NCBI GenBank assembly: GCA_002633005.1
Contig: NMRA01000188.1
Span: 544,464-595,203, forward strand
Source: Phoronis australis
Taxonomy: Eukaryota > Animalia > Phoronida
DNA: 50,740 nt
Direction of reading: 5' to 3'
This document shows, one piece after another, positions 5,162 to 44,300 of the stretch. Numbering within the stretch: position 1 is the stretch's first letter; the number at the start of each line of letters is the position of its first letter. The translations under genes were made by a program, and so were the position numbers. The notes under the pieces were generated by a model. The model was not told the DNA's origin, made no database searches, and saw only the letters and a list, made by a program, of their open reading frames with translations.

Positions 5162-5927
5162 TCAGGTGAAATTCACCGGCGTTGAAGCCTCACATCCAGG
5201 ACAGTTCACGCAAACTTCACAATTGCAACGCTTACATGAATGCGAAGATGCCTCGAACATATAGTCGAACAGGCATGCACCGCGACGTTGTACGCCATAC
5301 AAACACAAGATGAACAAGGTACAGTCTGTCGGGTCAGGCCATGGGTCGCCCATGACACATATGCCTTGAGTAGTACTGGGCGTGGTCAGATTAAGAGGGG
5401 TAGTTAATGCCGGTGTAATGGTAGTGATGTCATCCTCTGTTGTTGATTTTTCGGTTGAGGATGTCGACCCATAGGTGGTCATTTTTGGTTTTGTTGTAGT
5501 TGGTAATACCGTGGAAGTTGTTGGTGACGTACTTGTAATTGTCACAGTGCTTTTAATAGTCGTGGATGGCGATGACACCTTCGTTGTAGGCCTACTAAAT
5601 GGAGAAGTGACACTTTCGGTTGACTGAACCTTAGTCTGTGTTATCTCCCTTGTTGTATGATTGACAGGCAGCGAAGACGACGACAGTCCATATGTGATGA
5701 CCTCAGTACTTGCCTTTGACGTTTTAAGACGTGTAACAGGAAGTGCATTGGGCACGACCATCTCTATACCAATACTGGCCACATCCACATTCAAGTCCTT
5801 GAACGCAGTACCATTGAGCACCCCGTCCATAAGCACACTGAGAGTGGTTTCCGTGCTCACTGGAATAATGCTGTTTAAAATCCTCTTCATAAAAGTTAGA
5901 ACAAACTTCACTATAAGGCTACCGTCC
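5162..5927 (-). CDS. Alternative terminal exon D (recent paralog of C): SEA C-half (DGSLIVKFVLTF), short mucin stalk, 1 CBM14-like domain; predicted isoform about 613 aa
   Basis: 249-aa ORF extended to acceptor cttgatgttgcag|G GAC GGT AGC CTT, phase 2. Intact frame to stop. Confidence 0.85.
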
Positions 5928-6914
5928 CTGCAACATCAAGATTAAACGTATACTTACACCGGGGATCGTATGACGATATAAGATTTGAGACTAAATGTTT
6001 CTATCTTTATCAAATCGTCTAATATTATGATAGGCGAAAATTTCAGTTATTAGAGTAAAAGAATTAAACAAGTTTAATTAACGAACGAATTTGTCTGTGA
6101 CTAATTATTCAGCAGAAGCGCCATAAATCATTGGAAAAATATGTTCGATGAATGAAACACTATTTGTCAAGTGGCATCGAAGTACAAGACGCAAGACGTA
6201 TTAGCATTGTTACGGTTCCTTCTGCGCATGGACAGCTTTACGAATCATGGAATACATACACTGAGCAACAAATGGTGTTCGTACTTTCCACAGTTAGTTT
6301 TTCTGTGCATGCTTAAGAGGAACTGTAACACCATGGTAGAGTCTCGCGGCGATGAAAATCTAACCACAAGATCTCGTTTAAAATAAACGGCAATATCTCG
6401 CGTAATTTAGCGAAGTCTTGGCTTTTAACGAGGCCCTAGCGATACTGAAAGCTATACGTGGAAACGTTCACCAACGTAAGACACTTGCGAGTCAAAGCTA
6501 GTGTGCTAGCATGAAGTGCTTAGATTGTGATGCATGTCGTTATTTTGCTCATCTCGCAAGAAACTTTGTCCTGCGGAAGGCATCCCTGTGCCTCTAAATA
6601 TAAAAGCAGCAAGATAACAGGTAGGCTTCACATGTCCAGATCTATCTAAATTAGAAAAGAAGTGTAGAGTTCTTTATTGAAGAAGTAGGAATAGTCTGCA
6701 ACAAACCACCAACTCTCATAAGTAGAAGTTCACGGAAGAAAAAATGCCATCTTCAATTGGTACAAGTAATTTTATTACAGTGCATGAAACATTTCTAGTT
6801 CAAATTAGAAATAATTAAACAAAAGTTTAATGTGGTTTATATTTGGAGGGCTCTGATCCATTTACAGTCTATCAATTCACTCGCACACGGGTGGATTTGG
6901 GGGGAAGGGGATTT

Positions 6915-7149
6915 CAGTGCCAGATCTACGTTTTCAGTAAGGGGGGGGGTTAGGATTCGAGCGAATCCGAGGCGTGTAGCGCCGAGGAGAAGGAAGGTTG
7001 GGAGAGGGTTTCCCTCCTCCCCTTGTAAGATTTTTTTGTGGTTTTTAGTAGCTAATTTCGTTTTTCTGGCGAAATATTTTTCAATTTTTATTTTTGGTCC
7101 TGTCCCGAGGGGGGGAAACCCCCTCAACCCCCCTGTAGATCCGCCTCTG
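6915..7149. mobile_element. Short TIR element inserted only in unit 1
   Basis: Ends cagtgccagatctac ... gtagatccgcctctg (imperfect 15-bp TIR) with subterminal G and C runs. Absent at the equivalent sites near 15630 and 18970. Confidence 0.75.
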
Positions 7150-9340
7150 GTTTCTTGATGTTATTCATTGAAATCCTGAAAGTTCTAGTTTTGGTAGCAC
7201 ATTATGCAAAACTTAAGTAATCTAGAACAGTCCCTAAAAGCATTAAGGAAAATAGTATGTGCATCAAAGTATCTCAGAATTTCGTTTAAATCCAATCAGC
7301 CAATTCTAATATATGCTTTTCCGAAATAATCCAAAATATGACATTTTTAAGCACAGTTATTTCATTCAAACAATCGTCATACATTTTTATTCATTGCCTT
7401 ACCATCAAGATATCAAAATAACAACGACATGAGTTGAAGGTTCGATGCCTTTGATCTTACAATAAATGCTTTGTGCTTCGTCTGCAGGGGTGCGTTCCGT
7501 ACAGGCATGAAACCCATGAAAAATAAAGATCGCGCGAGTGCATACATTACAAGCACGTGATCACAGTAGCTTAGTTTGCGCCGAAGTTTCTTGCCAAAAC
7601 GGAACACACCTCAGGTCTACTACTGTCAAATGACTTGCATTGAGGAAACAAGGGAATCGGGCAACCACGGAAGACCCTTGCCGTTTTCTTTAAACGTGGC
7701 TAAGATCATACAGCTACAAGCAAAATGGGTAATTGAATGTCAATTCTAAATATTTCAATCTGGTAGGGGACAGGAAAACGCGTTAAAGAATTTTAGACAG
7801 AATTAAATGTTTAAGTATGCACTAATGACGTATACAAACGGCATTAATTTTCCAGTAGAGCCATTTATCTTTTTCAGGCTTTCATTGGCCCGCATGCTGG
7901 ATCATCTTCCCGTCTGAGTAGGTATACGACTTTAGAGGACTTTGCACAGCGACAAAACCATCGTGCGAAGTTGCAATCATGTACAGTAATACGAGTATGA
8001 TTATGACGAAGTATGCATCATCGCTCAATACTGTAAAATGTAAAAGAACACCCCCAATACATTTCATAGAATTTGAGCCAGTTTTAGTACGTAACTTTTT
8101 ATTTTCATACTACAAAACGTCACCAATAATGGCAGCTAATTCAGGCCACAAATGCAAGAGCCAAAAAGAAATTCCCATGTGATTAAAGAATGGTCCAGGG
8201 AAGCACAGCATCTTCATTTGTAGTGCAAGGACAACACGAATCTCATAGTCACAATGTAGATCCAAGTGAATCACAACATATTCGCGAGTTCAACGTTTTC
8301 ACGCGGTGACATCATTTGCGCGAATGAAGTAAAACCTGGACACAATAAAGTCATTGGTTTATTTGAATAATTTTTATTAACAATAACCTCAACAACGTGC
8401 CACATATTCTACAATACATCTCTGTTCACTGTGACCAACTGCGAATATGCTGCACCGAAACAAAATGCTTAAGTCGACGGATAGGTAAAATTTCATCTTA
8501 AGCCCCGTCAAATCGAATTCGCACCCAGTCTAAGAACATCCGCGCACGTTTCAATATCTCGAGGAAATGGCCAGGGGCGAGGCAAAATGAACAAGTCTGC
8601 ATGGGGAACAATCACGTACGCCTCCGTGGTTTCTACTAGAGCTTCCTTCCTCAATTTGTCAAGATCCTACTGTGAACTGGGTTCGTGTGACCGCGCCAGA
8701 AGAAAGATGTTCATCAGAATACTGACGCTACACTAACTATAACAATAATGATAATTATAAAAATAACAATGACGTGACGAGAATAGGGTTGCACGTTCCT
8801 GCAGGTAGACTTCACAATTACAAATACCGCTGTTACCAGTTCGTGCCACGCCGGATTGAAATTCTTTTCAACAGTAGCTTACGTCTTACAAACATATATT
8901 GATGAAAGCTTGCTAACACATAACAGTTTAGCTTCTATTAGTGTGATAAAAACACAAACCTTCGATTTGTATTTAAACCAATCATCGCCATAAATATGGC
9001 GCCAACCTGTTTCTTATAAAGACTAGAAAAGGGTTAGCTTATCACGGTGGGTTATTTTGAGCGCCAAGTATGTTCTCATCAAATAATGAACAGTGTCGTT
9101 TCTCTCCAGTTCGAGAAACCACATCTGACCTAAATAAAAAACAAGTTGAGACCAGCATTGCAAAGCTAAGTTGTCTAAATCAACACTTAGTTGGTGTAAG
9201 GCGGGTTTATAAGCCCCGCTGTAGGTTTTCGACCTCCCCACCACCAGTAATTAACAAAAATGAGACATTACCAATGAACGTTTTCTTCTAGAGTGTCACT
9301 GAACCCTGTTTCACATATCGACGACTATATCAAGTACATC

Positions 9341-10230
9341 AAAACTTGACGTCAGAGCAACAAACTTGGCGAAATAAATTTCGGCAAGAATGTTGCTCTG
9401 ACGTCAAGTTTTTTCCTTTTTTGTTTGATCGCACTCTACAGGTCGCATTTTTGACCGATTCCCACGAAATTTGCACACATCTCGTATCTCCGGAAGTGCT
9501 GGAAGCCTGTTGTATTTTGTCGTGATCGGTTAAAAAATGGCGGACGTGGTGGCCATTTTGTTTCCAATTTAAGATTCAAATGCTCATAGAAGCCCCCATT
9601 ATTTAAGCACACAACTGAAAATCGGCTAAAACACAGAACTAGACAAGCGCTATTATTCTGTAAGAAATCGCGAACTTTCGGTCAAAGATGGCGGAATTAT
9701 TGGCCATGGCGCATGAGCACTTCGATTCCAGGGTAAAAACGTTTTCTCCGGTAGATATATAGGACCAATTCCTTCGAATTTTTTCAGGTAAAAATTTCTT
9801 ATAACATGCTATTATTCAGAGCTAAAAAACCGAAAGTTGCTTTCAAGATGGCGGATCTGGCGCATGTTGACCCATTTTCAGTCGTGCTAGGGTGCCATTT
9901 TAAACGGGAGAAGAAAATGACGTGAATTTTTGCATATGGATTCTCTGAGGTATAATCTTTCAAACGAACTGCAACAATTTTTTCTCTGACTTACCGTTTT
10001 TGAGTTATTTGACGTTGAATTTCAAAAAATGCAAAATTTCAGTTTTTTCAAACAAATTACGGAATTTCGCACAACTAAGATCTAAGGTAGAGAGTTTTGA
10101 ACGGGCATTCAGAAGATGTTTTCCATTTTTCGCTAAGACGTCTACTTTTTGAATTATTCGAGATTTTCTGATAGCGCTGTTCCTTTGTTGAGCGCTCTTG
10201 CTGCATTGATGTTGGTTTACCTTTTATTGA
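9341..10230. mobile_element. Interspersed repeat starting with a 72-bp palindrome (Helentron/HINE-like, tentative)
   Basis: Palindrome at 9341-9412 followed by recurring aaaatggcgg/aagatggcgg motifs. Right boundary approximate. Confidence 0.45.
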
Positions 10231-12653
10231 ACAAGGCTGTAGCCTATTTCTTACTGATTTATGACATCTAATTTCGTCATATGAATGTTATGATGCTGTT
10301 CATCATCGCCACCATCATCATCATATTAGTCATCATCGTCATCATCTCCGTCCTCGTCTTTTCAGGTAATTTCGCCAAGTGTCGCTCAAGACTATCCCAT
10401 TTCTTACTGATTTCTGACCTCTACGTTCGTGGTATGAATGTTATCATTACTTATATTGTTCATTTATATGTCCAAACTTCTTTTAAATGTATCAGTTGTA
10501 GTGTTTTCTCTAACACCACAATTTATTTACGGATTGTTTTTTTTTCTGATTACGCTTGTACACACAGTTCTAAAGGAAATCGCAAGGTGACGCTTGCTAC
10601 AAATTTTAATATTCACTTTTTAATGGGACATAGTATCTTTAACCGAGATGGCTGCTGCTTGAAGTCGCCGTCGTATTGATCACGTCTAAGGCCAAAGGTC
10701 ACATTTCCCATGCAAGGGAAATTTGCTAGTTTAGTCTATGCCAAACCAAGTAAGGCCACGTGCTTTGCCTTGTGGGTGAAAACTACACGAAGTGACGAGC
10801 AGTTGACAGTTCGTTTTTCTTTGAAATTCGAAACTAAAAGAGAAATGCTTTGACATCGACAAAAATTCAAATATTTTACCAACCATTAAGATATCTGGTG
10901 AACAGGTTGAATTGTTTCAGTGGCAGAGATCGGCTAAGAATTATTCAATTTAGTCTGTTCATCGTGCTAAAGGACTATTCAGTTACTTTTCATGAAACAT
11001 AGCCCTGACCCTGGTTGTAAAACAATTGTAAAATGGGCGGGCAGTACTGAAACAAGTGCTCCCCCCCCCCCCCCNGCCCCCTGGTGCGCCGATCATGTGT
11101 AGGTATGCTCATTGCGTTCTCACTATTGCACGAAGATAACCGGCAAACACATTTAGAAATGCACAGGCGCAAAGGGAATATCTGGACGATACATGAGAAA
11201 TCTGTTTCTTTTTTTCACGGCACACTACTTTTAAACATGTTCCGTGACGCCGAGTATATAAATGCTCTAAATAGAAAGTTTTTATTTTTGAACACAGGCC
11301 TTCTTGTTAAATGGTACAAAACATGTTTCTGTAACCTAATTTGAAGTTCAGGGAATTGCAACAAATTCACAAACCAAAACGAAAACTTCGTTTGACAAAT
11401 GACAATTTTATTGAAATCATACTAGGACAGATGTAACCTAGATGTCGCGAATACAATAATCTTTCCATAGAGGCATCACACTTGGAAGACATTAATTCCT
11501 GCTAAGGAAATGTGCTCCACTGACGTCATAGGAGAATGAGTTTTCAATAAGATAACAAGAACATTTAAATCTGTTTGAGGAACTATCACTCGGTATGATA
11601 GTGTCAAATTTGATCCAACGAAAATATTTAAAATAACTGAAAACTAACAATATTCCTACAAATTACTCATTACAAAACTATTATCACTTTATATTTTGGC
11701 TTTACAATGGTAACAGTAGCAGTTCAAAATCAAACCGTGGAGACGGTTATGAAGAAAGTGTAGCGCAACAAGGAGTCACAGCTTGAACTAAAGAGAATAC
11801 GACACGTTGCTTTTTCAGTGTTGAGCAGTTAAAGCTGTTGAATAGAAAAGGATTCACTATACGTTGACTATACTCATGCAAGGCAGTCAAAAACTTCACC
11901 ATCAGCGTATTACTCAAAAACTACAAAAGACTGCGGTCTAACAAAGCGTCGTATCATGAGTTCTCGATCTACTCCAAAAATGTAACAAATAAATAGTAAA
12001 TGGGAGCAAATTTGATCCCATCTTGCCAAATGTTGCTGCTAGACACTAGGCATTGCCTCATACATGCAATTACAACAACTCCGCATATTAAGCACAAGAA
12101 GCGAACATTTGATTTAGACCAGTAGCAGCTATGAAAAAATTGATCTCAGACTGTTAAATACGAAGTGTTTTCCGGGTTGGCAAAGAACCGATAGTGCGCG
12201 GTGCAAAAACTGATGACACGTCGTGAGCGACGTGACAGAACACGTAGACCTTAGTTTCAAGCACTAAAGAACAGCCAGTTCTTTCGACCCTCAGATATCA
12301 TCGCAGAACAATTTGATATCAATCTCATAACGGTAAGTGGTCTAGCTCAAAACTTGTTTAACAGAAGGCGGATATATAACCCGTTCGTTAATATTCCCAT
12401 CATAATAAACCACAACCAATCGGGACCAAGTCGAGCCAGCGCAAGGTCCAAGTTCAGTAACACCTGAGGAAAACGTGTGGCAGTGAGGGATAACAATTAT
12501 TAGGTCATGTACAAAGTATAAAGAGACTCCACCTGCGGTCAAAAAGCCCCTTTGACGCAATGATCGAGACCGTCAGGTCTCAAATTATTCCTTGCTCAGA
12601 TTAACATTGATTTCTGGGGTTAGGAAGAACTCACGGCTATTACTTTCTTGAGA

Positions 12654-12909
12654 CCAGGGGCCCGTTCCAATAAACTGACTTAAGTTCATTTTTTACTTAA
12701 GTTTAAGATTTGTCGTAACATCCAAACATTGAAACTTCCTCATTCGGTAAGTTAGTCAAAATTAAGACAACATTTATGTCAAACATTTGACTCAAACTTA
12801 AGATTTCTTTCTTGAATTGGTTTTGAGACAAATTTAACTTTTATTTTAAAATTTACTAAGCTTTAAGATTTGTCTTAGCTAAGTCAGTTTTGTTGAAACG
12901 TGCCCCTGG
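12654..12909. mobile_element. Duplicated copy of the same MITE
   Basis: ccaggggcccgttccaataaactgacttaag ... ctaagtcagttttgttgaaacgtgcccctgg. Confidence 0.75.
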
Positions 12910-13112
12910 CTTGTCAAGGTGAATCACTGAGCCGGGTCCCATGCGTAGCCCAGAAATCATTTCTAGTCTAAGGGAGGAACCGTTACGTACAGATCAGTCT
13001 TATAAATGTAACAGTAAGTGCCGAGTCCAAATGAAACATGGACTTCTATTACAGGCAGAATGTGAATACACAGCTGCTTTAAATCAGACATTTTAATACT
13101 TAGTTCACCACT

Positions 13113-13872
13113 TCAGGTGAAATTCCCCCGCTTTGAAGCCTCGCAACCCGGACAGTTCCCGCAAACTTCACAGTTGCAACGCTTACATGAATGCGAAGAT
13201 GCCTCGAACATGAAGTTGGGCCGGCATGCACCGTGACGTTGTTTAACGCCATCCCAACACATGATGAACAAGGTACAGTCTGTCGGATCAGGCCATGGGT
13301 GGCTTATGACACATCTACCTTGAGTAGTAGTGGGCGTGGTCAGATTAAGAGGGGTAGTTAATGCCGGTGTAATGGTAGTGATGTCATCCTCTGTTGTTGA
13401 TTTTTCGGTTGAGGTTGTCGACCCATAGGTGGTCATTTTTGGTTTTGTTGTAGTTGGTAATACCGTGGAAGTTGTTGGTGACGTACTTGTAATTGTCACA
13501 GTGCTTTTAATAGTCGTGGATGGCGATGACACCTTCGTTGTAGGCCTACTAAATAGAGAAGTGACACTTTCGGTTGACTGAACCTTAGTCTGTGTTATCT
13601 CCCTTGTTGTATGATTGACAGGCAGCGAAGATGACGACAGTCCATATGTGGTGACGTCGGTACTTGCCGTTGACGTTTTAACAGGAAGTGCATTGGGCAC
13701 GACCATCTCTATACCAATACTGGCCACATCGACATTCAAGTCCTTGAACGCAGTACCATTGAGCACCCCGGCCATAAGCACACTGAGAGTGGTTTCCGTG
13801 CTCACTGGCATAATTCTGTTCAAATTCCTCTTCATAAAAGTTAGAACAAACTTCACTATAAGGCTACCTTCC
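13113..13872 (-). CDS. Alternative terminal exon C: SEA C-half (EGSLIVKFVLTF), short mucin stalk, 1 CBM14-like domain; predicted isoform about 611 aa
   Basis: 247-aa ORF extended to acceptor cttgatgtttcag|G GAA GGT AGC CTT, phase 2. Intact frame to stop. Confidence 0.85.
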
Positions 13873-14151
13873 CTGAAACATCAAGATTAAACGTATACTT
13901 ACACTGGGGATCTTATGACGATATAAGATTTGAGACTAAATGTTTCTATCTTTATCAAATCGTCTAATGCTATGACACGCGAAAATTTCAGTTATCAGAG
14001 TAAAAGAATTAAACAAGTGTTATTAACGAACGAATTTGTCTGCGATTAATTGTTCGGTAGAAGCGCCATAAATCATTGCAAAAATATGTTCGAGAACGAT
14101 GAACGACACACAATTTGTCAAGTGGTATTGGAGTACAAGAAGCAAGACGTA

Positions 14152-14983
14152 ATAATAATAATAATAATAATAAACTTTATTTAAAGAGGATGAAAATACA
14201 ATAAATGTAAAACATGCTTTAGCCAAAGGCTAATATCCAGCATGGTCCTCTGCAGCAAGAAATTAAATTAATTAAATTAAGTAACAGATTAAACAGATTA
14301 AATTAAGATACAATAAGATACATTAAATAAAATAAAATAGTATTTACAAATTGGATAAAACAAATTGAATTAAAGATAAATAAAAAATTAATTTTTTTGG
14401 TAAATATATTGGAAAGACAAGAAGGAGGGACATCTATGACGACCACAGGTAACTGATGAGGTGGTGTCTGAAATTATCATAACAATCAGCATCCTTAAGA
14501 TTATAAGGCAAATTGTTCCACTGTTTGATGGTCTGAATAAAGAAGGACTTAGAATAAAACGATGTTCTGTGTCTGGGCAAAACCAAATTGTTTAAGGCAG
14601 AAAATCTTGTCCTGATCTGGTGGCTATTTCGAACAAGTACGAGATTATGAGATAGATAAGTCGGTACATTACTGTGAAAGCACCTATGCATCATACACAG
14701 ACACCTATATATAAAATATTTGTTAATAGGGAGCCAGCCCGGTCTATTAAACATACATGTATGAGTTGACGGAGTGTCAAAAGGCACACCTAGAACAAGT
14801 CTGGCAGCCTGCTTTTGAGCCTTCAATAAAGAGGAAACTAATTTTGCATTGCATCCTGACCACACTGTGCTACCATTAACGAACAGAGGGAATACACATG
14901 CGCTGAAATATTGCAGACGCCCTTCTGTGGGAAGAAATGGTGATATACGCCGGAGAAGACCAAGAGGCTGCCTAATTTTGGAC
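14152..14983 (-). mobile_element. 5'-truncated non-LTR retrotransposon (CR1/L2-type LINE, ORF2 C-terminal fragment)
   Basis: 183-aa ORF resembles the post-RT region of CR1/L2-group ORF2 (LGLLRRI...Y...V...S.VW...QKQAAR...WLP...SF....IKQWNNLP). 3' end is aataaagt followed by (tta)n. ACGTA is duplicated at 14147-14151 and 14984-14988, and the empty site gcaagACGTAttagc is present in unit 1 at about 6191-6205. Confidence 0.88.
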
Positions 14984-22687: not shown

Positions 22688-22700
22688 GTGGAATAGAGAC

Positions 22701-30900: not shown

Positions 30901-30982
30901 CAATTAGCACCATAACATCACTGGCACAGCTGACCCTCTCAACACCCTATCCTGCTTTTGTTGCACCCACATGAATATTATC

Positions 30983-32684
30983 TCAAGTGTGCGGACATTC
31001 ATCACATACCAAAGGGTTGCATTTAATGCAGCCATTTTTATCAAGACTAAACATTAGGTTTGGGGGTGCATCACTGCCATCATTACAGTCAAAAGGGGTT
31101 GCCTCTCCTAACGTACAGCTCAGGAAGTATGTACAGCTATGGGGATGAACTTCGAAATGAGTCCCTGTTCTGTTGTGGGAGCATCGAACAGAATCCAACT
31201 GCTCCGAGGACAGTGCAGTGGTCACAGTGCCATTGCCAAATGCACTTGTTGGCAACGCACGGTTGACCCGCTGTGTGGTAGGGCCTACTTCTTGTTCACC
31301 ATCTGTGCCTTGACTAGTCAATGGCACAGTAGCGGCTGCGGTTATTCCAGGACTGCTAGTCATAACTACAGGGCATTTGTCACACACACTGGAATTGCAC
31401 TGTACACAGTGCGATAAATGTTTATCAAACATTTCACCTTGCGGGCACGGCACAGTTTGAATAATCCAGTCATTACTCCATGGTTTTGGAAAACAAGTCC
31501 AAAAATTCGTACAGTCAGACTTACTCTCATGCTTATCGTCAGGATTGTTTTTGCAATAGTCATTTTTCGATGTTGTCAATTGCTCAGTAACTCTTGTTGT
31601 TGCTGGTGTTGTTGATGAGACATATTCCATTGAAGTTTCTGTCACCATTGTAGCATCAGCAGCAGTTGGTGTTGTGCTTCCAGCTAACTGTGTCGTGAAC
31701 ACCACATCATTGTCATCCTCATCACCACCACCATCAGGGTGAGGTCTACCCTGTGTTGTTGGCACACTGCAGTTGCTGCACACCGTAGGGTCACAGGTCA
31801 CGCAGCCTCCAACCTCGGAGCTGTACATCGACCCATACGGACATGGTATCTGGACGTACTCATAACTATTAGAACTGAGCAAACTTTTGAAGCAAGCATA
31901 AAACACCGAGCAATCACCAAAGTGTTGGAAGGTCTTGTTGTAATTCTCAGGAAGGTGACACTTGGATAGGGTTGTTTGTTCAGTCGCCTGCATTGTTACC
32001 ATAGAACCAGTCCCAACACTGGAGCTAGTAATGACTGAAGTTGGGTCACGGCTTGCACTAGAGTCAACATTAGTAGATGTTGTGCTAGACTCTTCTGTAC
32101 TTGTTTTGATATCAGCTGACGTGGTTAATACAGGGCTTGTAGTTGTTGTTATGGCAGTACTAGTCAATGAGTCCACAACAGTTGTGCCTTCAATATGTGA
32201 AGTGGTTTGTGCAGGTAATGTTAATGTTGAAGCTGATGTTGATGATGTTGAGTGCCTCGTGGTAGACAACGGAGTCGACTCTGTTGGCAATTCGTGATTG
32301 GTCGTTGTTCTCATATTTAATGATGCACGTAGCGTTGTTGCTACAGTTGTTGTTCTTGCTGTTGATCTCCCTGCAGTTTTCAATGATGGCAAAAGAGACG
32401 TAGCATGAGTTCTTATAGACATTGTTGGTTTTGGTGAAAGGGTGGTTTTCAAAGATGTCTTGGGCACTATTTTAGACTTGCCATAATCCTTACGTAACAT
32501 TGACCTTATGTTGATTAACTTCATACGCAGACTTGACATGTCAACAGACATGTTTTCCTTCCTCATTGCACTTTCTATTGACACATTAAATACTGTTTCA
32601 ACATCCGCGGCCTTGAAAGTTGTCCCAGACACTTTGCTGTCGTTAACAAAGGTCAACACAAAATCGATGTAGATGCTTCCGTTA
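30983..32684 (-). CDS. Alternative terminal exon A: SEA C-half (NGSIYIDFVLTF), mucin stalk, 3 CBM14-like domains; predicted isoform about 925 aa
   Basis: 581-aa ORF. Acceptor ctttttgtttag|T AAC GGA AGC completes the CG+T Arg codon from exon 4. Thr/Ser-rich tracts and three Cys clusters with peritrophin-A-like spacing; stop at 30983-30985. Confidence 0.88.
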
Positions 32685-32737
32685 CTAAACAAAAAGATTA
32701 AACAAGCTTCATGTTTGGCACCGTTCATATCAACGAA

Positions 32738-32772
32738 CGGGTGTTGTCAACAAGCCGACTGTCCTGCGCATG
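32738..32772 (-). promoter_or_regulatory. Putative selector sequence for exon A
   Basis: Plus strand cgggtgttgtcaacaagccgactgtcctgcgcatg, starting about 53 nt from the acceptor AG. About 30 possible base pairs with 34517-34552. Confidence 0.7.
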
Positions 32773-34516
32773 CGTCCCTGTGGAAACAGTTTTGGTTAAA
32801 ACGCAGGAAAATGCTGGAAACACAATGAACCAGAGACGTCCCTACATGAAATGACACTGAGAGAAAAACTGAAGACAGCGCAGCATTCACGGAAATAAGG
32901 TTACATCGACACAACAGAGAGAACTCTCTATGGAGTTACGTTGCCATGGTTCTCAGGACGAAAACAACGATGCAGGCATGCCACTTTATTCACGAAAAGT
33001 TGTACGTCACTTAACTGTGCAAAGGTGACAACAACATCGGTAATAACAGGATGAACAAAAGGTTTCATCTCAAGCGGTTAAGACATGGGTATAAAATGTT
33101 GTTTTGTGAAGTATTAGTAGTTAGCTTGTAACCATCCTAAGTACTAACTATGAGGTTATGTCGACGGGGCGAAATTTTCATCACAATCCAGTAAGGCTGC
33201 AAAGCATCATAGCATTGGAGTTATCCTCCGCCAGTGTCACAAGTTACTTAAAGCATTTCGCCCAGTTAAACTGGCTAAAAACCAACACTGTATTACACCT
33301 TTCATTCTCACGAAATCGATCCTGTTATGTTCCTAACTGTGATAGGATTCGAAATGAAACGCCTCTGCGCTTATTGGGGCTGGCTGACGCTAAATTTGTT
33401 GGCCAGCCCCAAGAGACTCTGAAGCGTTTTCTCGAGTCGATGGTTTCCATGTTTTTGTTGGTAACAGAGTCGAACCCTGCCACCTTAAGGAACATTCTGA
33501 GACCAACTTTATGAGAGTAAAGGGGGCCAATTCGATTTTCATTTATTAGCCAACTGAATAGGGCGAAATGCAGCCAAGTATTAGTGGGTAATCTATCATT
33601 TTTTATTAACTAGCAAACTGAGATGTTAGAGGGAAATTAGCACTGCTGGGATATGGCTGCCACAGCCACAATGCAATGGTATGTTATTAGAAATCATGTT
33701 TGGCTATCTTCAGATGAAGAAACCCAACTTATGTCAAGGCTGTGTGCGAGCCAACTTTCGAATTGTGTTACTTCTATCAACTTTTCAGTGCCAAAGCTGC
33801 CACTGAGCACATTTCCGACAACAAAAGATGTTACGTGTTAGGAAGCACATAGTTGGGCTACTCTAAAGATAGAACAGGGCTTGACATTAAAAGAGGCTGT
33901 AAAATTGGAAACAAAAAATATGCCCTAAATGACTTGTTGAGGAAAAGTTCATTATAACTGGAATAGGTGTAATCAGTAATACAGGGAGTTCAATGCTTCG
34001 ATGCAGACAAGTCAGATTGAAATTCAAAACCATGTAAAATTCTTTTTGAGTCACAACTGATCAAAAAAGTTTTACCAGTTAATGCAGAACCCCTTAATTT
34101 GTCCAACTATGTTCAGAAAAAAAAAACATGATCCAATCATGCAGTTTTATTAACTATTACCTCCGTTACTTAATTAGTTATTATTTCTTGTGTTTTCAAT
34201 GCAAGCTGTATGACTCTCTAGCTTAACACTGCCCAACAGGTGGCAGTGTGTTAACCTACAGCACAACACCATTAAAAACAAAAGACCGGGCATAAGGCTT
34301 CAAAGCCCAAATGATAATAGCAGACATCGCATGGTTTCACATGCTGCCTTTTCAACAAAAGGAACAACAGAACGTTGGATAAGCACATGCACTAATTGAA
34401 ACCAAAAAGTAAAATGAACAGAAATGTGGGCAGACATGGTCAACAAGAAACAAGGGCACATGCTCATTCCATTAGTGCTGCGTGCAGATGAGTGTGTTGA
34501 GGAAATAGAGATGTGA

Positions 34517-34552
34517 CATGCACACCAGACGGCTTGATGACAACCCCACCCG
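34517..34552 (-). promoter_or_regulatory. Putative intronic docking site for long-range RNA pairing
   Basis: Sense RNA CGGGUGGGGUUGUCAUCAAGCCGUCUGGUGUGCAUG, about 360 nt downstream of the exon 4 donor. It is the inverted complement of elements upstream of exons A and B. Confidence 0.7.
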
Positions 34553-34647
34553 CGAGCAAATACACACAATGAAAACACATTGTAAATTATACAAAAACAA
34601 AACATAAACAAGAATATTCCTTCACCTTCACATTAGCAAGGTTGCAT

Positions 34648-34672
34648 GGTTTGGTTTGGTTTGGTTTGGTTT
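34648..34672. repeat. (GGTTT)5 microsatellite
   Basis: ggtttggtttggtttggtttggttt read directly. Confidence 0.9.
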
Positions 34673-34914
34673 TCTAACTAGTAAGTGGTAAATGTTAAAT
34701 TTTACTGGCGGAGTGAATCTGATACACATTTACTGTGAAAGAAACACAAATAAAGCAATGCTCATGAACAAAGAACTTTATCCTCACTTCCAAAGTCAGC
34801 TGTTGCAGACTACATCTAGAGCAGACGAGAACACAGAGTTGTGCACACATCAGTTGATAATGAGGTCATTTTATAGCCACACAAGACCTAAACTATTCGC
34901 TGTGCAGTACTTAC

Positions 34915-34982
34915 CGGTAGGCAATCACCTGACACGTCTGAAACGAGTCTTTGAGGTCACTGTTGTTGTATACTGCCTGCAC
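34915..34982 (-). CDS. Shared exon 4 (68 nt, phase 0-2), SEA domain middle VQAVYNNSDLKDSFQTCQVIAY(R); last constant exon
   Basis: Not in the ORF track; read manually. Acceptor tgctgtttccatgcag|, donor TACCG|gtaagt. Continues the SEA consensus (Y-x-x-S-x-L-x-x-x-F...V-x-x-[FY]-R) up to the GS motif. Confidence 0.88.
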
Positions 34983-35284
34983 CTGCATGGAAACAGCAAA
35001 GTCTCAATTTGACAGTAAAACACGGATCACAAGCTGACAAAGCAGACTACAGCAGTGTAACTGACCCACTACAAAACTCGGTTTGATGGCATGCAAATAC
35101 ATTTCAACACTGAATACGATAATTCCTCACTTACTTTGGACAAAAATAATTCCAAAATCTTGTCTTTTTTATATTTTCAAACTAGGCTGATTACTTTGTT
35201 TGAAGAATTGAAACTTTACAAAATGCTGCTTTATGTCATCCTCATAGTAAAAACCAAGCTAACAACTGACTAGAATTTTCTTAC

Positions 35285-35929
35285 CTGGAAATTACGAAAA
35301 TAGGCCCATAGGGAAATATTTGGAAAATGACCTCTCAAAAATGTCAGATGAGATTGAATATATCCCCACTAGTTTTTCAAAAATGAGGGGCTTATTCATC
35401 GGACACTATACCAAAATTTTATGACGCAATTTTAAAGTAAATAATTGTCATTTCACCCAAGACTGTTTTCAAAGAACGTGAAAGAGAACTGCCCTTCTGT
35501 AAGTGTGGGTAGTCCTTAAATTAAAGGACTGTTTGTTTTTACTGATAAAGAAGCAATGCAAAAGGTTCATTTAACATAAGGAGCAAACATTTTTGTAAAG
35601 TTTTGAAAACAAACAACATTAGTTGTGAAGTTTTTTCAATAAATGCATCTTTTTAACGTATATAGTTGTAATTTTATTTGTCCGTACTTATTTCCCATTC
35701 AGCTGACATAGTGCATGAAAACTGCCCTTCATACTATGCCAATATAGTTACCAAAAAGTCACCCAATATCTTATTTGAATGTCTTGCCAAAATAAAACAA
35801 AATTTCACATCAAAACATATTACGGACGTGTTTTGGAACAACAGATTGAATTTTCGTATCATGCAAGCAGTTTCTGAAAAAACACCTATTTGCGTACTTT
35901 TGAGTGGGCCTATTTTCAGAAATTCCCAG
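35285..35929. mobile_element. Non-autonomous DNA transposon/MITE in intron 3
   Basis: TIRs ctggaaattacgaaaataggccca ... tgggcctattttcagaaattcccag; no coding capacity. Confidence 0.75.
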
Positions 35930-36162
35930 TAAACTTCACTTTTGTTAATGAATTTTGAAAAAATGTAATTTCAGCAATTCACCCTATTGTGTGCTACCTA
36001 CTATGGTTAAGATCATAGATTCCACTCAGTAGGGATGAAGACCCAATCAAAGCAGATATCTGACTTCACTCTCAAGAGGGCAATCAAGTGTGAACAAGGT
36101 TATTCCTACCACAACTGATTTCAATTTCAGCTCTGCCCGACACTGTTCAACAACCAACTTAC

Positions 36163-36269
36163 CTTACTGCAAAATAAAACTGAGGTGCTTTTGTACTTTT
36201 GCGATGTTTTGTCCTCATACTCTGGACCGTATGTCATATTACGTATGCGCATGCTTCCATTAAATGTAA
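36163..36269 (-). CDS. Shared exon 3 (107 nt, phase 1-0), start of SEA domain VTFNGSMRIRNMTYGPEYEDKTSQKYKSTSVLFCSK
   Basis: Acceptor cttctttcttttgtag|, donor AGTAAG|gtaagt. The peptide fits the SEA N-terminal strand/helix pattern (F-x-x-S-h-x-I-x-N...Y...S-x-x-Y). Confidence 0.88.
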
Positions 36270-36978
36270 CTACAAAAGAAAGAAGACCAACTTTTGGAGA
36301 GGTGAATTGGGTCACAATCAAGTCATCACAAACACTAGCACATATTTAAGGATATTTCCAACCTTATTCACAAAAATTGGCCATTTTTACAAAATTTCAC
36401 TTGTGTCTAGCAAAATACCTTATCTTCATTCTCGGGGAACTTCAAATACGAAATATATACTGCGTAGCGAGAAAAAAAAGATTTAGCAGAACCACCTTGG
36501 AACCGCACATCCGCTTGGATATTTGTTTAGCACTTATCCAAGGTCAAAGGTTAAAGGGCTTTCAAGTAAATAGAGTCTCCCGCCAGGTACAGAACAGCTT
36601 CGGTATACCTTCAGTCCTTTCATTCGCAAATTCGCCATAACATTGAACCAACGAGGTATGGTTATGATAGAATGGTCCCGGGGAAAACGAATACAAAACG
36701 TAGTTTTTATCCTAAGGGAGTTGTGGGTCTACATGCATACGACTGTTGACGTTGAAAACAAATTCTACGAGTTGCCTCAGGATTGAGTCTGGTCATGAAC
36801 ACAGAAAGTTGTGAAAAGAGATAAATCCTCCCCATTATTCCTTAATTCAATTATTAAGTTAACATTTTGATGTTTCGATTTCATGTTAACGACTTACTTT
36901 AACCACCAATTCAATTTTTGTTGTCCATTTCTTACTTGGTTTGGTATCAGTCTTCCAGCACGTGACGTGTACAGGCTA

Positions 36979-37821
36979 TGAACTGTGACCTACTTTTCTA
37001 AGTAGGTCGTACAAAACGGCAAAAGTTGGCTGCGAAAGATAGATCTATTTGAGGTTTTAATGATATTTAAGTTAGTTACGCGCTGCAAAATTAGTTGACA
37101 TTGCAAGAAAACATTGAAATAGGTGACATAGTTAAGGATTCTATAGGTTATGCATACCGAAAACAAGTTTTCACAGAATAATTAACCAAAGACTTAGGGA
37201 TTTTCACGTGTCCCAGTTTAATCGGCATTATCTCGGCTTCGGCAAATCGACTTTATTTGAACTTAGGAACACGAGTTCTCGAAAATGGTTTGATGGATTT
37301 CGCTGAAACTTTCCAAACTTAATATTTAGTGACCAATCTCAAAAACGCTGTTAGGATTTTTGATATAAAAGCTTAGTTTTTGTGTAATGTGACAAAGACG
37401 AATACGACTTCAATTTTTTACAAAAATACCTTACGTTTTGCAAGTTGATTTGTCATAGAAACCAAACGAACAAACTAATCGAAAATTCCTAACAGCGTTT
37501 TTGAGGTAATTGATGAAGTTTTCATTTAAAAAAGGTTTCGTTAAAATCGACTGATGGGTTATTTTACGTAAAAACAATAATGACAAATAACTACAAAAAG
37601 TATATTTATATTTCCTGGTATTTGTTCTTTCAGAAAATATTTACTTTTACTAGTTGACAAAGCTTAGTTTTTTTGATATAAGTGTGAGAATGGAGGCCAC
37701 TAAATAAGGTTGGACATAACCTTAAAATACAGAGATAAAAAACCAAGACTAAGCCCAAGAATTCCCAATAAGTTATTACTTAACATTTACAGATACAGGC
37801 AGCAAGTAGGTCACATGTTCA
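36979..37821. mobile_element. Non-autonomous TIR element in intron 2
   Basis: Ends tgaactgtgacctactt ... aagtaggtcacatgttca, with an internal inverted pair ctcaaaaacgctgttagga (about 37338) / tcctaacagcgtttttgag (about 37486). Confidence 0.65.
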
Positions 37822-37935
37822 CAGAGACGAAAAATTGCTGACAGTTCAGAGTATGAATCATTGCACATCAAATGTCCAAAAAGAAACTGTAAGGAGTGGA
37901 GAGAATAACAACTGACCAAAGGGGGCACAACTCAC

Positions 37936-37992
37936 CCACATCAACTTCGTCAGGTTTGCCTGTCGTCTGGATACTGCTTACTGCTTGATTAT
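37936..37992 (-). CDS. Shared exon 2 (57 nt, phase 1-1), juxtamembrane linker DNQAVSSIQTTGKPDEVDV
   Basis: Acceptor attctttattggtag|, donor GATGTGG|gtgagt. Open and phase-compatible with both neighbours. Symmetric, so it could be skipped without frameshift. Confidence 0.7.
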
Positions 37993-38830
37993 CTACCAAT
38001 AAAGAATGCATCATGATCATAAACGACGACCCAAATACACAAGTCTTTTGACCATACCTTTGGCACACCTACACGATGCATCCAACAACATTCCTCAACA
38101 AAAGGCAATATCACGTCAACGTTTAACTAAAGAAACTACATACTCCCATCAGAAAAAACAAATTCATATTCAGGCCACTTACCATCACGCAACTGGTCTC
38201 AAGATGATCCTTGGCCAAATTTTAGGAAATTTCAGCACTTTGAAAGACCTTAACAGTTGGTTATTGCTCGAGACCAGGCTCGACAAAGGCACACAACTGC
38301 TACTGCTATTCGGCAATAAAGAGGTAGTTCTATGTCCCATAAGGGTATAGATTTGGCTTCATAGAAAACCTAGTGTATCATAGAGTAGTTCCAAAACATC
38401 ACCACCAGAGTACATGCACCACATATTTTGGTGAACAGATGGCAACTCACTATCTGGAGGGCAACAGGAGGCATCTAGCCAACCAGAGAAGTAGAGCAAG
38501 CCCCAAGCATCGCTCAGACCTCCTCAAGACGTCCGAGCAATGCCCATCCAATGAAATATTTGTGGAGTGTTTCAGGGTACTGTTAGTGGGTATTGAGTGT
38601 GAATGTGGTAGTACTCAGTTAAAAACCTGTGGAAATCAATTGCTGAGTAATTGACACTACTGAAAACAAACCAGTTTTCAGTGCAGCAAGAAAGTTCATA
38701 GTTGCAACATTTGCTGGCTGGACATGCCAAAATAAGTAACATGATCAGCGCGAAACTACGCATGCTTCCAAAGATCAAAGTAGCTGTGATTCAAACTACA
38801 ATCACACTGGTTAGGAATGATTAAACATGT

Positions 38831-40290
38831 CAACAAGAGCAATGATCATCGCCGAACTGCACCCACGACTCCACCGCAAACAGAAGGGGTGTATATCAGT
38901 ATCATAAACATGGCCATCAGATGCCGCGGAATACATCAGACCTATCCAAAAATGAGAAGGTGTCTACAGAAAACTACCACCTAAATTTCTTGAAGATCCA
39001 TCGCAGAACACCAAAGATTAGAGGTAAACGTGAGAAAAGCAAATGGCATTAAGAGGCGACATGGTAGTATGGTCCATCCATCTGTTGTCAAGTTAATCGA
39101 ATACACTTGCCAAACTTCCACAGAGTTGACGAGATACAGCCGCAGATGCAAAAATTGTCACTAAGGAGCACCATAGTGGTTCGACCTATCTGAAAATCCA
39201 CGTCAGTCACGCTTGTCAGAAGAAACACATATACCAATTTTTATAATGATCCTTTCAGTGGTTTGGGTATACAGAGACTTGTTTCCCAAATTTCATCAAA
39301 AACCATCCAACACTTAAGATACAGAGGTAAATGTAAAAACTAAAATTACCACTAGGAAGCCCAAGGGTAGTCAGGGTCATCCACACGATGTGGGCAGACC
39401 TTGACTCAATCACAGGGTAACACTTGCAAAATTTCACCTAGATCTACAAAGCTTTAAAGGATATACAGCCATGGACACATAAAAAATGAAATCACCATAG
39501 TTCTCACACTTGTCCAAAAATTTAGAGGCGGAAGTCAAAAACAGACTCGAAAAAACAAAAATGGCCACCTGGTGGTGCAAAAATTAAACGCATCTTTCAT
39601 AAAATAAATAACATCGTTGTCTCTTTAATAGAAAGTTTTGTTGCCAAACTTTATGAAAACCCATCAAGGAACTACGAAAATAAAAGGCAGACGCAACTAA
39701 AAAAGTGTCACTAGGTGGCACAGTGGTATTTGGATTGGTCTGAAACTTGTTGCCATCTGTTGTCATGTCCATGGGAACGCATCTGTCAACTTTCACGACG
39801 ATTCTGAACAGGATTGCAAGACGATTATACAGCCATAGAAGCAAAAACAACAATAGTCGCCACAGTCGCTAACGTAGTCGAACCCTTCAGAAAATCAACA
39901 TCAGTCGAGCTTTCTCATCAGAAACACATAGACTTGTCAATTTTCATAATTATTCTTCGAGTGGTTTGGTGGATAGAGAGGACACAAAAAACCAAATCAA
40001 AATTTTTCAAAATGCCTACAAGGTGGCACAGAATATGTCAAATCCATCCAAAAATGGAAAGGTGTTGTTGTCTTCTTAATAGAAACCTATTTGCCAAATT
40101 TCACCAAAATCCATTAAGGTGCGATATTTCTTGTCATCTGTTGTCAGCTTCATAGGAAGAAATGTGTCAGATCTCATTAAATTCCGGCAAGGGGTTTAGG
40201 AGAAACAATAGTGGACACCGGACATCCACACGCCCAGACAGAGGTGACGACAATAAGCACCCACATGTAAACATGTGGGCACATAAAAAT
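38831..40290 (+). mobile_element. Helentron/HINE-like element with degenerate internal tandem repeats of about 150 bp
   Basis: Starts aacaagag; recurring caaatttcatcaaaatcc / gagatacagcc / cactaggtggca motifs; ends in hairpin cccacatgt-aa-acatgtggg followed by aaaa. Confidence 0.5.
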
Positions 40291-40463
40291 GGAGTAAGCC
40301 GTGCCCATGACACAGTTCAATCACGGAACATTTGGAGTTTGTTTCATACCTTGAATTACCCCTAACATTGTGAAAATCAAATCAAGAACTACATGCAGGT
40401 CCCAACATAATAGCCAAACTAGTTGTGAGTCCAGTACATTCTGTGTGGAATCACGAATCTCAC

Positions 40464-41307
40464 CTGGTTTAACAAAGCCTAAAATAATAGCCACAATTGC
40501 AGCTGTCAGACATAAGGTGATAAGCATGAATAGTAAGGCTAACACTTTCCATCCAGTCACTGAAAGGCAAGGCTTCTTTTTTGGCGCATCATCTGATACC
40601 GTCCGGCGGTCGTCAGGACCAATAATGTCTAACTGTATGTCTTCCTGCGACGACGTACCACCGCCGTCTGAAAAATTTGGCCATGCCGTGCCATGCTGTG
40701 TGTACGACCTTGGCGTCCGTAATTGTCCTTGAAATTGATACTGCTTAGGCTTGCCTCTAGGTGGCTCTGCCGATGGCAAGAGCAGGTTACTGTTTGTTTC
40801 GTTTGTAGTCCTGTGAAAATGAGATGTACGAGCACTGACATATTGCACTGTAATCTGAGCTGGCACATTATTTCTTCTGTCATCATTTATGGCACTATTG
40901 GAGTCCGTCGAGCTAGACTCTTCTGACACGGGCTCATGAATGTCCGCAGAGTACGCCCTGTTATCATAGCACTGCTGTGACGAGCTCGGCAGACTATGTG
41001 TAGTGTTTGTCAACGATTCTTTCCGCCGTGAGTCACTTGGCAGAGACAGCTGAGATCCTGCAGGTACATTGAAGTATGAGCTGTGTTCAGGCCTCCGACG
41101 TGGGAAAAGAGAGTCTGAATAGAATGAGGGTGTCTTGTGGCTCGTTAACGAGTGCACCCTGGCAACCTCGTTTTTAGAGGGCGTACAGGAGCCCACCTTG
41201 AAGACATCGCGCACATCACGATGTCGACTACTGTAACTGCCCTGGCTGTGTCTAGTCCGGTGTGGAACAAGAACCTCATCTTTCACTGCTTGTTCTGTCG
41301 ACCACAT
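40464..41307 (-). CDS. Shared exon 1 (coding part) of type II membrane SEA/mucin/chitin-binding protein: Ser-rich cytoplasmic N-terminus plus single TM helix
   Basis: Within the 341-aa ORF. Acceptor tttgttccag| gives exon start 41337; first in-frame ATG at 41307 (MWSTEQ...). Basic KKKPC precedes hydrophobic WKVLALLFMLITLCLTAAIVAIILGFV (positive-inside, type II). Donor AAACCAG|gtgaga at 40464/40463, phase 1. The true start could lie in an unidentified upstream exon. Confidence 0.85.
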
Positions 41308-44300
41308 AGGCTTCTTGCAGTAGTATGGAAAAGCTCCCTGGAACAAATAGCAGACAATGTCAGACTTTCATGTAGCAATGTGGCAACTGATGACGTGGGA
41401 CTAGATACTAGTGACTTCTAGAGGGCAAGGAGGCAATCACACAGTACACTTGTAAAAAGGCCTTTTCACAAAACCAAACATGTTCCTCTATGCCAACCGC
41501 TGCAAAGAAGTAGTACCTCCTGCTACAGCCAGGTGGCAATAAGATTCACCAGTCCCATGTCATCAACCCTTGTTGCTTTCTGTAAGACTCAACGAATTCA
41601 CTTAACAGCAGAACATGATTACTTTTTAAAGTAGGTTTTGTTTCTATCTAATTTTCCAACTCACAGCACATTGAAATCCCATGATGTTTCTGTAACATTT
41701 TCAAAAAATAATAACATAACAGGCTCAACGATTCTGCTAATGTTTTATCTGTTTTAAACATATTTTCTAACTTTAGCAAAGAATACATTTTTAGAAAATT
41801 GTATACATGGTTATTAGCTTTGTTTTAGTCATACAGTGTTACAATTCTTGCAAACATCAAGATTGAGAAAATTCTAATCTATTGCAAGCATTATCTGTAC
41901 TGTCATAAACAACTTTTAGTGAATTTTCATTGTTTGCAGTAAAGTGCAGGTTAACTGTAATGGCATTTTTTCGCTATATTTCCACCATTTTGTTCACTGC
42001 TCTGCAGTATATAACTTCAACATGCATCATACCCCAACTAGTTTATGAAAAGAAATTAATTTAAGCCCCTAACAATTGTAGTAAATTAATTAAGATTTCC
42101 TTGCTGTGTTGCTGAAAGACATTGCTATCCTTCTATTCAGTTGTACACTGTAGCCAGACTATGAAATATCCCACAATAGAATGCAGTTGCGCCTGGTTTA
42201 ACTTACAAGTCATGTGTAAGGGCGTGTGCCTTCATTTCAGACCTAACATGACTGGGATGAACATAAAACGATGATTGATGACAATTCAAATATTCTCCTC
42301 TTATTTAATAAATCAAGCGTAGGGCAACCTGACATCATCAAATGTGCCTAAGTTATCTCTATCAAACACATTCAATAATTGTTGACCCAGTATATCTGCA
42401 TAAAGTAAACACCCTAGATATTCTCTGTGGGAACAAAGCAGGCACACTAGAGCACAATAGCCTGCATCAAGTGTCTTGCCTTAACAAAGCCCAGTGATCT
42501 CAACACTAAATGTACGTGAACGCCAGTTGCAAGCCATGAAATATCGAGTTCAGATTGGATTAATAAGAGCTCCACCCTGTTTATTAAACATACTAGGCAG
42601 TAGCCAGGCCAGTGAGTTGGGAAATCAATTCTTGATTAAATGTGAGAACAGTTGATGACTCAAGTTACAGAAGCTCTCCAAAACTGGCAGATGTATTTAG
42701 ATAGGGATTTATAAACAAATTCAAATATTATTTGAGAAAAAATAAAATAATTTAATTTTAAATCAATTTTGCTATTTTTGTTATTTAGTAATTGATGTAA
42801 ACATGCAAATAGTCATCACTGCTAAATCATAATCAAATAAACAGAAACATAAGTATGATCTTTAAATCACATAATTTTGTTTGAATTATCACAAATTTAT
42901 GTCGAGACCAAATGTTGTCATTACATGCAAATATTTCATACTTTCAATAATTGAAAACTATTTTCCTCAAAATTTTGGCTCATGGCCAAAAACAGGACTC
43001 CTAGGCAGAAAATAAATTGTAAATTTACTTCAATTCATACTTGAAAATTCTTTAACAAGAAACAAGAAACAACTATGTCAAAAGGAACAGGACTGCTTGT
43101 ACATCGAAGCTCACAGCACGAGAAGATATTTACCGTACTCTTCTGGGTTACTGCCTGGTGCGTGGTTGTATTAGGGAATACAAAAACCATGCAGTGGGTG
43201 TTTAGCCCAAACAATGACCCTTAAAAATAACAATTTTTTCAAAGCTCAAGGTGGTGCTAACTTAACCATCAATCGGGTAACCACCCAAGGAGCTACTTCA
43301 CATGAAGACGGATAGAATGAAAGGGACTGATGCTTAATCAAATGTGAGTTGCGTACTTTTTCGGAGCATGAATTCTGATGAAATGGGCATTTCCAAACAC
43401 ATGGACATTTTAAGGAAGTCTCCATCAGATAACTTGGGTGGTAATTATGAAGTCAGGTGGTACGCCATCCGATCATCGGGTATAGTAATAATTTTTGCCA
43501 CAACTTAAATACCAGCAAAATGCAAGAAAAGACAAACAAGCTGAGAATCTTTTTGTTGATAAAATAAAGAGGTCAAAGCATGGAGGGAATCTTCAACACA
43601 CCAAACTGTGTTTCCAGATGGCTTCTAATAAAGTTTGTTTTAAAAACTCAAAGGCAGAAAACAGGTTTTCAAGCCCTTACCCAATCAGTCCAGTCTCCTC
43701 TGATAAAGATGTAAACATCAATGATGTATGGGCGGGAATGTTGGTCTTGTAAAAAAACAAACAAGCAGGTTACTCCTCTGTTGTGGCATGTCTCAGCATT
43801 TGATAAGGCAACTTGTTGGGTCTGATCTACAGAGTCAATCCAATAGACCAGATGAAACTTTGTCAGTTTTGGACAACTAAGTCTGAAATGGTTGTTAGAC
43901 CAAAAAAGCTCTACCCCGACTCGTATGGGAACACTCACTCACTGGACTCTCGATCTTTTTTTAAAGCTGCACAAAGGCACTTAAACAAGGGTTAGCAAGG
44001 TTTGACACCCCATCACTTGTCACGTGAGTGTTAGCTCATCTGGGGTGGCTTTTCTTTTTTGAAAGAGTGACCTACAAAAAAAACAGTGTACCACCTTCTT
44101 CTTATCTAATTGTTTTTATGAGAAATTCCAGAGACAACATTTCATATTTTTACCATAATGTGTCCAGAAATTGAAATTTTATGGTGCATAAGTATACTGG
44201 CCACCTGTACCTTTTCCAGTGATTGTTTTTTTATTAAATGCAAGTCTAAGATAGTGGAAAAGATTGACAATCAGTTAGGAACTAATCCTCCTTATGCATC

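Follow-up and report, generated by a model that had tools for sequence, protein, structure and literature searches.

A phoronid locus that appears to join one membrane anchor to alternative terminal exons encoding SEA-mucin-CBM14-like ectodomains

How are large open reading frames (ORFs) that resemble mucin genes expressed if they lack beginnings of their own? Four such ORFs lie in a 50,740-nucleotide (nt) stretch of the Phoronis australis genome (assembly GCA_002633005.1, contig NMRA01000188.1, positions 544,464–595,203), which we call the window and whose guanine plus cytosine content is 35–44% across 2-kb blocks. We propose that the four ORFs are alternative last exons, or cassettes (A–D), of one minus-strand gene. 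Very probably, the constant exons of this gene (E1–E4) are spliced to A or C, likely also to B and possibly to D, with the choice among cassettes predicted to be biased by RNA pairing. Such cassettes are prone to annotation as separate mucin genes without signal peptides.

The constant part of the gene begins with E1 (40464–41337), which contains a short 5′ untranslated region (UTR), an ATG at 41307 and a phase-1 donor, and encodes a Ser/Thr-rich cytoplasmic tail of ~255 amino acids followed by a single transmembrane helix. The helix starts at about residue 258 and reaches a Kyte-Doolittle value (19 amino acids) of 2.96, as compared with 1.44 or less for all segments of the cassettes. E2 (37936–37992) encodes a 19-codon juxtamembrane linker. 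The N-terminal half of a SEA domain is divided between E3 (36163–36269), which matches SEA profile positions 3–30, and E4 (34915–34982), which matches positions 37–57. Together, E1–E4 contribute 1076 nt of coding sequence and stop within an Arg codon in phase 2, with E4 ending two bases inside this codon at the shared donor, CG|gtaagt. A phase-2 intron probably lies at this Arg in other SEA genes as well. When the peptide encoded by E3 and E4 was compared with the window using tblastn, only E3 (E = 2e-23) and E4 (E = 2e-11) were recovered, with the next best match at 0.41, and no private exon for a SEA N-half was found between the cassettes in the window. The proposal in the earlier note that there is a single transmembrane and SEA N-half set, with none between the cassettes, was thus borne out within the window by tblastn and profile searches.

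What completes the SEA domain? The acceptors of A (32684), B (24891), C (13872) and D (5927) all follow ag, are in phase 2 and complete the Arg codon opened by E4, as the earlier note had described, giving stop-free spliced proteins of 925, 1075, 611 and 613 amino acids, respectively. Cassette A (coding region 30983–32684) encodes a SEA C-half, a mucin stalk and three CBM14-like domains with 8 cysteines each before its stop; cassette B (22740–24891) encodes a SEA C-half, a mucin stalk and two 8-Cys domains; and cassette C (13113–13872) encodes a SEA C-half, a mucin stalk and one 10-Cys domain. Cassette D (5162–5927), a recent copy of C, retains an open frame and an intact acceptor. Ser and Thr make up 30–35% of the cassettes, and the isoforms have stalks of about 130 to 600 amino acids. 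The description of these ORFs as lacking a start or signal peptide was correct in that their segments all fall at or below the hydropathy value given above and in that the first Met of cassette B is at residue 418 or later, with no signal-like segment; it must be qualified for cassette A, where an in-frame intronic ATG lies 39 nt upstream of the acceptor, and for C and D, which have a Met at ORF residue 16.

Six-frame profile searches of the window detected four SEA C-halves and seven Cys-rich domains (3, 2, 1 and 1 in A–D), no more and no fewer, and no fifth cassette. In addition, we scanned both strands for a phase-2 "x-G-S/R-aliphatic-aliphatic" sequence after every AG, which returned the four minus-strand cassette sites and one unrelated plus-strand site. 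At 1770, a faint tblastn signal (E = 0.06) has no profile match and was dismissed as a fifth cassette for that reason.

Which of these junctions are used? We examined a contig set that we assume to be RNA (X1) and three stranded RNA sequencing runs (X2–X4) chosen by species label; 18–19% of the reads of each RNA run were used, and these were compared with two regions, 22000–41900 and 5001–25000. The E1–E2 joint is supported by 7, 8 and 8 reads in X2, X3 and X4, respectively, the E2–E3 joint by 7, 5 and 9 reads, the E3–E4 joint by 9, 5 and 1 reads, and the E4–A joint by 1, 7 and 3 reads. A single X1 contig spans all four joints, such that E2 is joined to both E1 and E3 in all four data sets, and the intron ends at these joints are all canonical (CT..AC). 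In X4, 9 reads are clipped at 13873, and their 30-nt consensus (agreement 1.0) equals window positions 34916–34945, which are unique in the window. These reads are an E4–C junction, spanning 21 kb and skipping A and B. They align to C at 97% or more, and X4 has no depth on the 5′ part of D. The donor at 34915 is therefore not restricted to the junction with 32684, and sole use of that junction, which the earlier note had named as counting against its claim, is contradicted.

The minus-strand RNA cover falls into separate blocks for A (to ~25668), B (from its acceptor to 20153) and C (to 11397). The ends of X1 contigs at 25668, 20153 and 11397 adjoin AATAAA signals at 25616, 20173 and 11412, although these data are not 3′-end sequencing. 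On this basis, the 3′ UTRs extend over ~5.3 kb for A (25611–30982), ~2.6 kb for B (20153–22739) and ~1.7 kb for C (11397–13112). B has minus-strand RNA cover in all four runs. In the bin 24656–25319, which includes the B acceptor, depths were 1.26, 1.03 and 0.86, compared with 1.04, 1.25 and 0.93 expected for cover starting at 24891. Moreover, X1 has a gap after the A poly(A) site, with no contig over 25320–25667, the depth of that bin being that of one contig from 25668. We regard B as very probably a third isoform, and D as having an even chance of being a fourth.

Several observations weigh against a four-cassette array. The E4–B joint is absent both among the 15 best of 31 joints in 22000–41900 and among the 23 listed of 64 loose ends in 5001–25000; as the listed joints and ends are the best supported ones and are crowded by repeats, this absence is neither proof nor refutation. 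E4–C is among the listed ends in just one of three read sets, one X1 contig runs unbroken from E4 into A, and a second one extends past the C acceptor for 58 nt of intron, to 13930. For D, depth over 5668–6334 was 0, 0, 0.43 and 0 in the four runs, no junction was present among those listed and no clipped reads were listed at 5927, and the counterpart of the C poly(A) signal reads AACAAA. The claim of one gene with at least four isoforms thus held for A and C, through their joints, and indirectly for B, but not for D, which lacks a junction and has near-zero specific coverage.

It is nearly an even question whether D is used at all. D is a recent duplicate of C: 718 of 769 nt are identical, with 40 substitutions and two indels of 9 and 3 nt. 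One possibility is that only A, B and C are used, D being a silent or decaying copy left by a segmental duplication of ~8 kb or missing from the individuals that were sequenced. The depth on its 5′ part, the lack of clipped reads listed at its acceptor, the altered poly(A) signal and the flanks of C and D, which are still 91–94% alike, are all in keeping with this. However, D has kept its frame and acceptor despite the substitutions and indels, and the proportion of nonsynonymous differences (pN) between C and D is below that of synonymous differences (pS), both overall (0.049 versus 0.065) and in the Cys domain (0.107 versus 0.188). It is also the case that just 18–19% of each run was examined. 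Since pN is below pS, positive selection between the C and D tips was ruled out.

If one donor serves several distant acceptors, how might a cassette be chosen? A scan for pairing between the 600 nt that precede each acceptor and the initial 1000 nt of intron 4 gave best tiles of -41.5 kcal/mol for A and -40.4 kcal/mol for B, both ~80 nt before the acceptor and both pairing near 34550–34565; these energies were matched by 0 of 8 shuffles for A and 1 of 8 for B. A 22-nt element, identical at 20 of 22 positions, is present upstream of A and B, even though the SEA halves of these cassettes share just 33% of their amino acids. With up to 3 mismatches allowed, it occurs twice in the window, compared with 0 in 100 shuffles, and it tops the local alignment of the 1-kb regions upstream of A and B, scoring 20.5 against a shuffle maximum of 15.0 (n = 200). 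We designate these copies as predicted selector A (32738–32759, 75 nt upstream of the acceptor; duplex -41.0 kcal/mol, rank 1 of 574) and predicted selector B (24943–24964, 73 nt upstream; duplex -31.5 kcal/mol, rank 23 of 574). Their best duplex partner is a predicted docking site at 34525–34556, ~360 nt after the E4 donor. The inverted match of selector A to intron 4 was equalled in 1 of 200 shuffles, and its wobble-aware score was reached by 1 of 458 background windows. The A and B introns are otherwise unalignable, and both pointed separately to the same intron-4 site among 1000 nt.

Other results temper this picture. The first rank of selector A is not independent, because the dock was defined from the hits for A and B, and with the dock fixed, B ranks 23, C 309 and D 172 of 574. 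The wobble-aware score was reached by 13 (B), 47 (C) and 47 (D) of the 458 background windows, and an unbiased inverted-repeat alignment failed to choose the B element. Upstream of C and D, a 13-nt stretch 93 nt before the acceptor can pair with the dock with one mismatch, which is not significant. Local hairpins before the four acceptors were no stronger than in shuffles, and a search of Rfam gave no match. We consider the element shared by A and B to be solid as a sequence feature and its pairing with intron 4 to be plausible; that dock/selector pairing biases the choice of cassette is, in our estimate, moderately probable.

An alternative, which we think possible though not probable, is plain competition between splice sites coupled to polyadenylation, with the shared element a protein-binding or branch-region motif whose complementarity to intron 4 arose by chance. 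C is used without a significant selector, and according to one study, a scanning model can explain single choice among 3′ cassettes, where pairings may be rarer (PMC6191721). Nonetheless, one intron-4 site has as its best partner the sole element kept between the introns of A and B, an agreement that favors the pairing model over chance complementarity.

Under the pairing model, the last exon would have been duplicated with the 3′ arm of an intron-4 stem attached, so that the array came to have a single docking site (34525–34556) and one selector for each old cassette. When the dock pairs with selector A or B, the E4 donor would come to lie close to the corresponding acceptor. C might be reached through weak pairing, or by default when transcription passes the poly(A) sites of A and B. 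The pattern at A and B fits a proposal that copying an exon and a single arm of an intron stem yields competing structures (PMC9013439). The locus could thus offer a compact test of that proposal, as the arm is kept in the old cassettes, A and B, but barely so in the younger pair, C and D.

Could a misassembly have set two alleles of one cassette side by side as C and D? We think this very unlikely, as the divergence between C and D is 6.6% in coding sequence and 6–9% in their flanks, compared with ~1% between RNA alleles and the window (9/1502, 10/1284, 12/960 and 6/579). The point in its favor is an X1 contig (13361–13930) representing a C allele that carries a 9-nt insertion at the place of D's insertion and two D-like substitutions. 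This D-like allele points to an old polymorphism shared by C and D or to gene conversion between them. In addition, pS is 0.02 in the stalk and 0.19 in the tip, a patchiness that would fit gene conversion better than positive selection.

It is also very unlikely that the distal cassettes have promoters of their own and that their transcripts are attached to the constant exons in trans. A cis route to C must pass two used poly(A) sites over 21 kb, an X1 contig reaches 58 nt upstream of the C acceptor, and joining of this kind is reported for chelicerate sDscam (PMC9258826). However, all parts follow one another on the same strand, pre-mRNA would equally explain a short unspliced extension, and pipe uses cassettes 12–17 kb apart without favoring the early ones (PMC6191721). 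That B is instead an independent gene, or the read-through tail of A, accords with the absence of E4–B among the joints and ends listed but is very unlikely, as B has no Met before residue 418, no signal-like segment and no private upstream SEA exon, an RNA gap follows the A poly(A) site, and A and B have a selector in common.

Does the one-gene reading describe a known kind of gene? The locus has the structure of a tandem 3′ variable cassette array of the PGRP-LC/pipe type: there is a single constant set in the window, the cassettes are homologous and in the same phase, the donor is joined to two of them, and A, B and C have their own 3′ ends. In Drosophila PGRP-LC, pipe and CG42235, one docking site and several selectors choose among 3′ cassettes (PMC6191721), and the gene design is therefore already known. 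PGRP-LC (LCx, LCy and LCa) likewise combines common cytoplasmic and transmembrane exons with duplicated 3′ ectodomain cassettes that have separate 3′ ends. It has one dock, selectors before two cassettes and a third cassette without a selector (PMC6191721); here, a comparable arrangement is predicted. Unlike PGRP-LC, the present gene lacks a PGRP domain (no such Pfam match in the ORFs scanned), uses one large exon per cassette, encoding half a SEA domain, a stalk and 1–3 tips followed by a 1.7–5.3 kb UTR, and has a single donor, with no second 5′ splice site seen. The tandem, mutually exclusive terminal cassettes spread over more than 10 kb also recall pipe and CG42235, whose cassettes are under competing pairings (PMC6191721 and PMC9013439), but the proteins are unrelated, pipe cassettes have multiple exons, and the cassettes here are fewer and consist of single exons. 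A gene design best studied in flies is in this way extended to an unrelated protein family.

The earlier note knew of no described example, and this holds in part: we found no published description of this architecture, a weak negative because most subscription papers were outside the search, whereas the gene design is known (PMC6191721). Relatives of the protein were not found with E1 (against longer proteins), with cassette A or with the Cys-domain alignment, nor were they found in the ESM Atlas with C and A; among metagenome contigs searched with A, none of 159 pattern matches was confirmed. Each of these results is weak evidence.

How would the SEA domain, divided between constant and variable exons, be assembled? 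With exons scanned singly, the Pfam check proposed in the earlier note matched E3 (PF01390, E = 1.9e-5; 25.2 bits, cut-off 26.4) and, more weakly, E4 (E = 0.1) to SEA and six of the seven Cys-rich domains to CBM_14, but gave no match for the four SEA C-halves alone. E3 alone had no match among PDB sequences, and a single-sequence fold of the B SEA half (predicted local distance difference test score [pLDDT] 51.5) was too poor for use. Right after the junction, the cassettes encode GSIYI (A), GSVIV (B), GSLIV (C) and GSLIV (D). We take this G-S-aliphatic sequence to be the SEA cleavage motif, which follows the second strand. On sequence grounds, we lean slightly toward self-cleavage of the SEA domain just inside the variable exon, which would then encode nearly the whole outer subunit. 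As cleavage at G|S-aliphatic would fall three residues into the variable exon of this putative type II surface mucin, the part left in the membrane would hardly vary between isoforms, and practically the whole sheddable subunit would come from the variable exon.

MUC1 and enteropeptidase/TMPRSS exemplify SEA-domain membrane mucins and type II SEA proteins, respectively. With these proteins, the predicted isoforms share a membrane-proximal SEA domain with a G-S-aliphatic motif and a Ser/Thr-rich stalk. They differ in being type II with the stalk after the SEA domain, in carrying CBM14-like tips instead of a protease and in having the SEA domain split between constant and variable exons.

What might the Cys-rich tips bind? 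Pfam CBM_14 (PF01607) matches 6 of the 7 domains, 2 of which reach or exceed the cut-off individually. When one tip was modeled with AlphaFold (pLDDT 81), its top Foldseek matches were CBM14 structures, with template modeling scores of 0.53–0.56 and a best E value of 0.0085 (none ≤0.001), and the best PDB sequence match of the tips is the three-domain Aplysia EHEP (E = 2.3e-5). Pfam matches and fold thus resemble those of CBM14/peritrophin-A proteins (CHIT1, tachycitin, Blo t 12 and Aplysia EHEP) and peritrophin-type mucins. However, the tips contain 8 (A and B) or 10 (C and D) cysteines with a tail, a departure from the six-Cys CBM14 pattern; the CBM14 domain of CHIT1 has six cysteines and three disulphides (PMC5459812). 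They also differ in being membrane-anchored via a SEA domain and in lacking an aromatic residue at the place of CHIT1 Trp465, which has the strongest effect on chitin binding (PMC5459812). Placing this position from Cys spacing, two residues after the Cys read as CHIT1 Cys463, we find T, Q, K, S, K, R and R in the seven tips (0 of 7 aromatic).

To place the tips among known proteins, a profile search of 1.84 billion representatives yielded 451 proteins of a generic, multi-domain CBM14-like type, and we inspected the best 150. None of these 150 contains the C-x-x-C-x(3-5)-C-x-x-C tail or matches a profile of this gene's SEA domains. W, Y or F occupies the Trp465 place in 362 of 1452 motif matches among them; since an aromatic is absent in three quarters of the matches, its loss in the tips weakens, but does not exclude, chitin binding. 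The tips look like an unrecorded CBM14 variant with an extra Cys tail, and the glycan binding that the earlier note ascribed to the ectodomains is better called putative, as the CBM14 fold is present but the Cys pattern differs and the key aromatic is missing.

The isoforms would differ in stalk length and tip number (3, 2, 1 and 1). As its most likely role, though with about equal weight for and against, the protein may tether or sense extracellular matrix or a microbial surface at an epithelium. It is also possible, though unlikely when all parts are taken together, that the locus is an independently evolved, probably non-arthropod, PGRP-LC-like array, in which an RNA switch among four exons fits sheddable heads, bearing 8-Cys CBM14 tips with a non-chitin or altered ligand, to a constant socket.

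Beyond the recent C/D duplication, older relationships are discernible among the cassettes. The tips of A and B pair up (A3/B2, 42% identical; A2/B1, 37%), and A and B therefore descend from one multi-domain cassette. Within B, a 48-nt tandem repeat (24390–24633; 5.1 copies, 97%) encodes a 16-residue mucin unit, and RNA alleles of B contain in-frame insertions of 6 nt at 23692 and 3 nt at 24048.

At the 5′ end of the gene, 154 letters of an X1 contig 5′ of the E1 acceptor match nothing in 22000–41900, and for this reason we place a 5′ UTR exon and the promoter to the right of 41900. The E1 frame remains open for 46 codons into intron 1 (40324–40463, minus strand), including a second hydrophobic stretch. 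Retention of intron 1 would yield a short anchor-only form; reads at 40324–40463 are confounded by repeats.

Finally, the region between B and C contains a 3.3-kb tandem duplication (14330–17598 and 17600–20919; 97% identity) with an N at its junction (17599), which repeats the end of the B 3′ UTR with its poly(A) signal (16852). The duplication may reflect a join made during assembly or a haplotype that was not collapsed. It includes a near-identical pair of 184-amino-acid ORFs (17708–18259 and 14437–14988, minus strand), presumably related to the C-terminal end of a non-long terminal repeat retrotransposon reverse transcriptase, which they resemble; the copy scanned had no Pfam match. A sequence of ~2 kb occurs three times (7149–9337, 15627–17598 and 18966–21133; 92–97%) and is partly B 3′ UTR, so that similar segments follow B and D.

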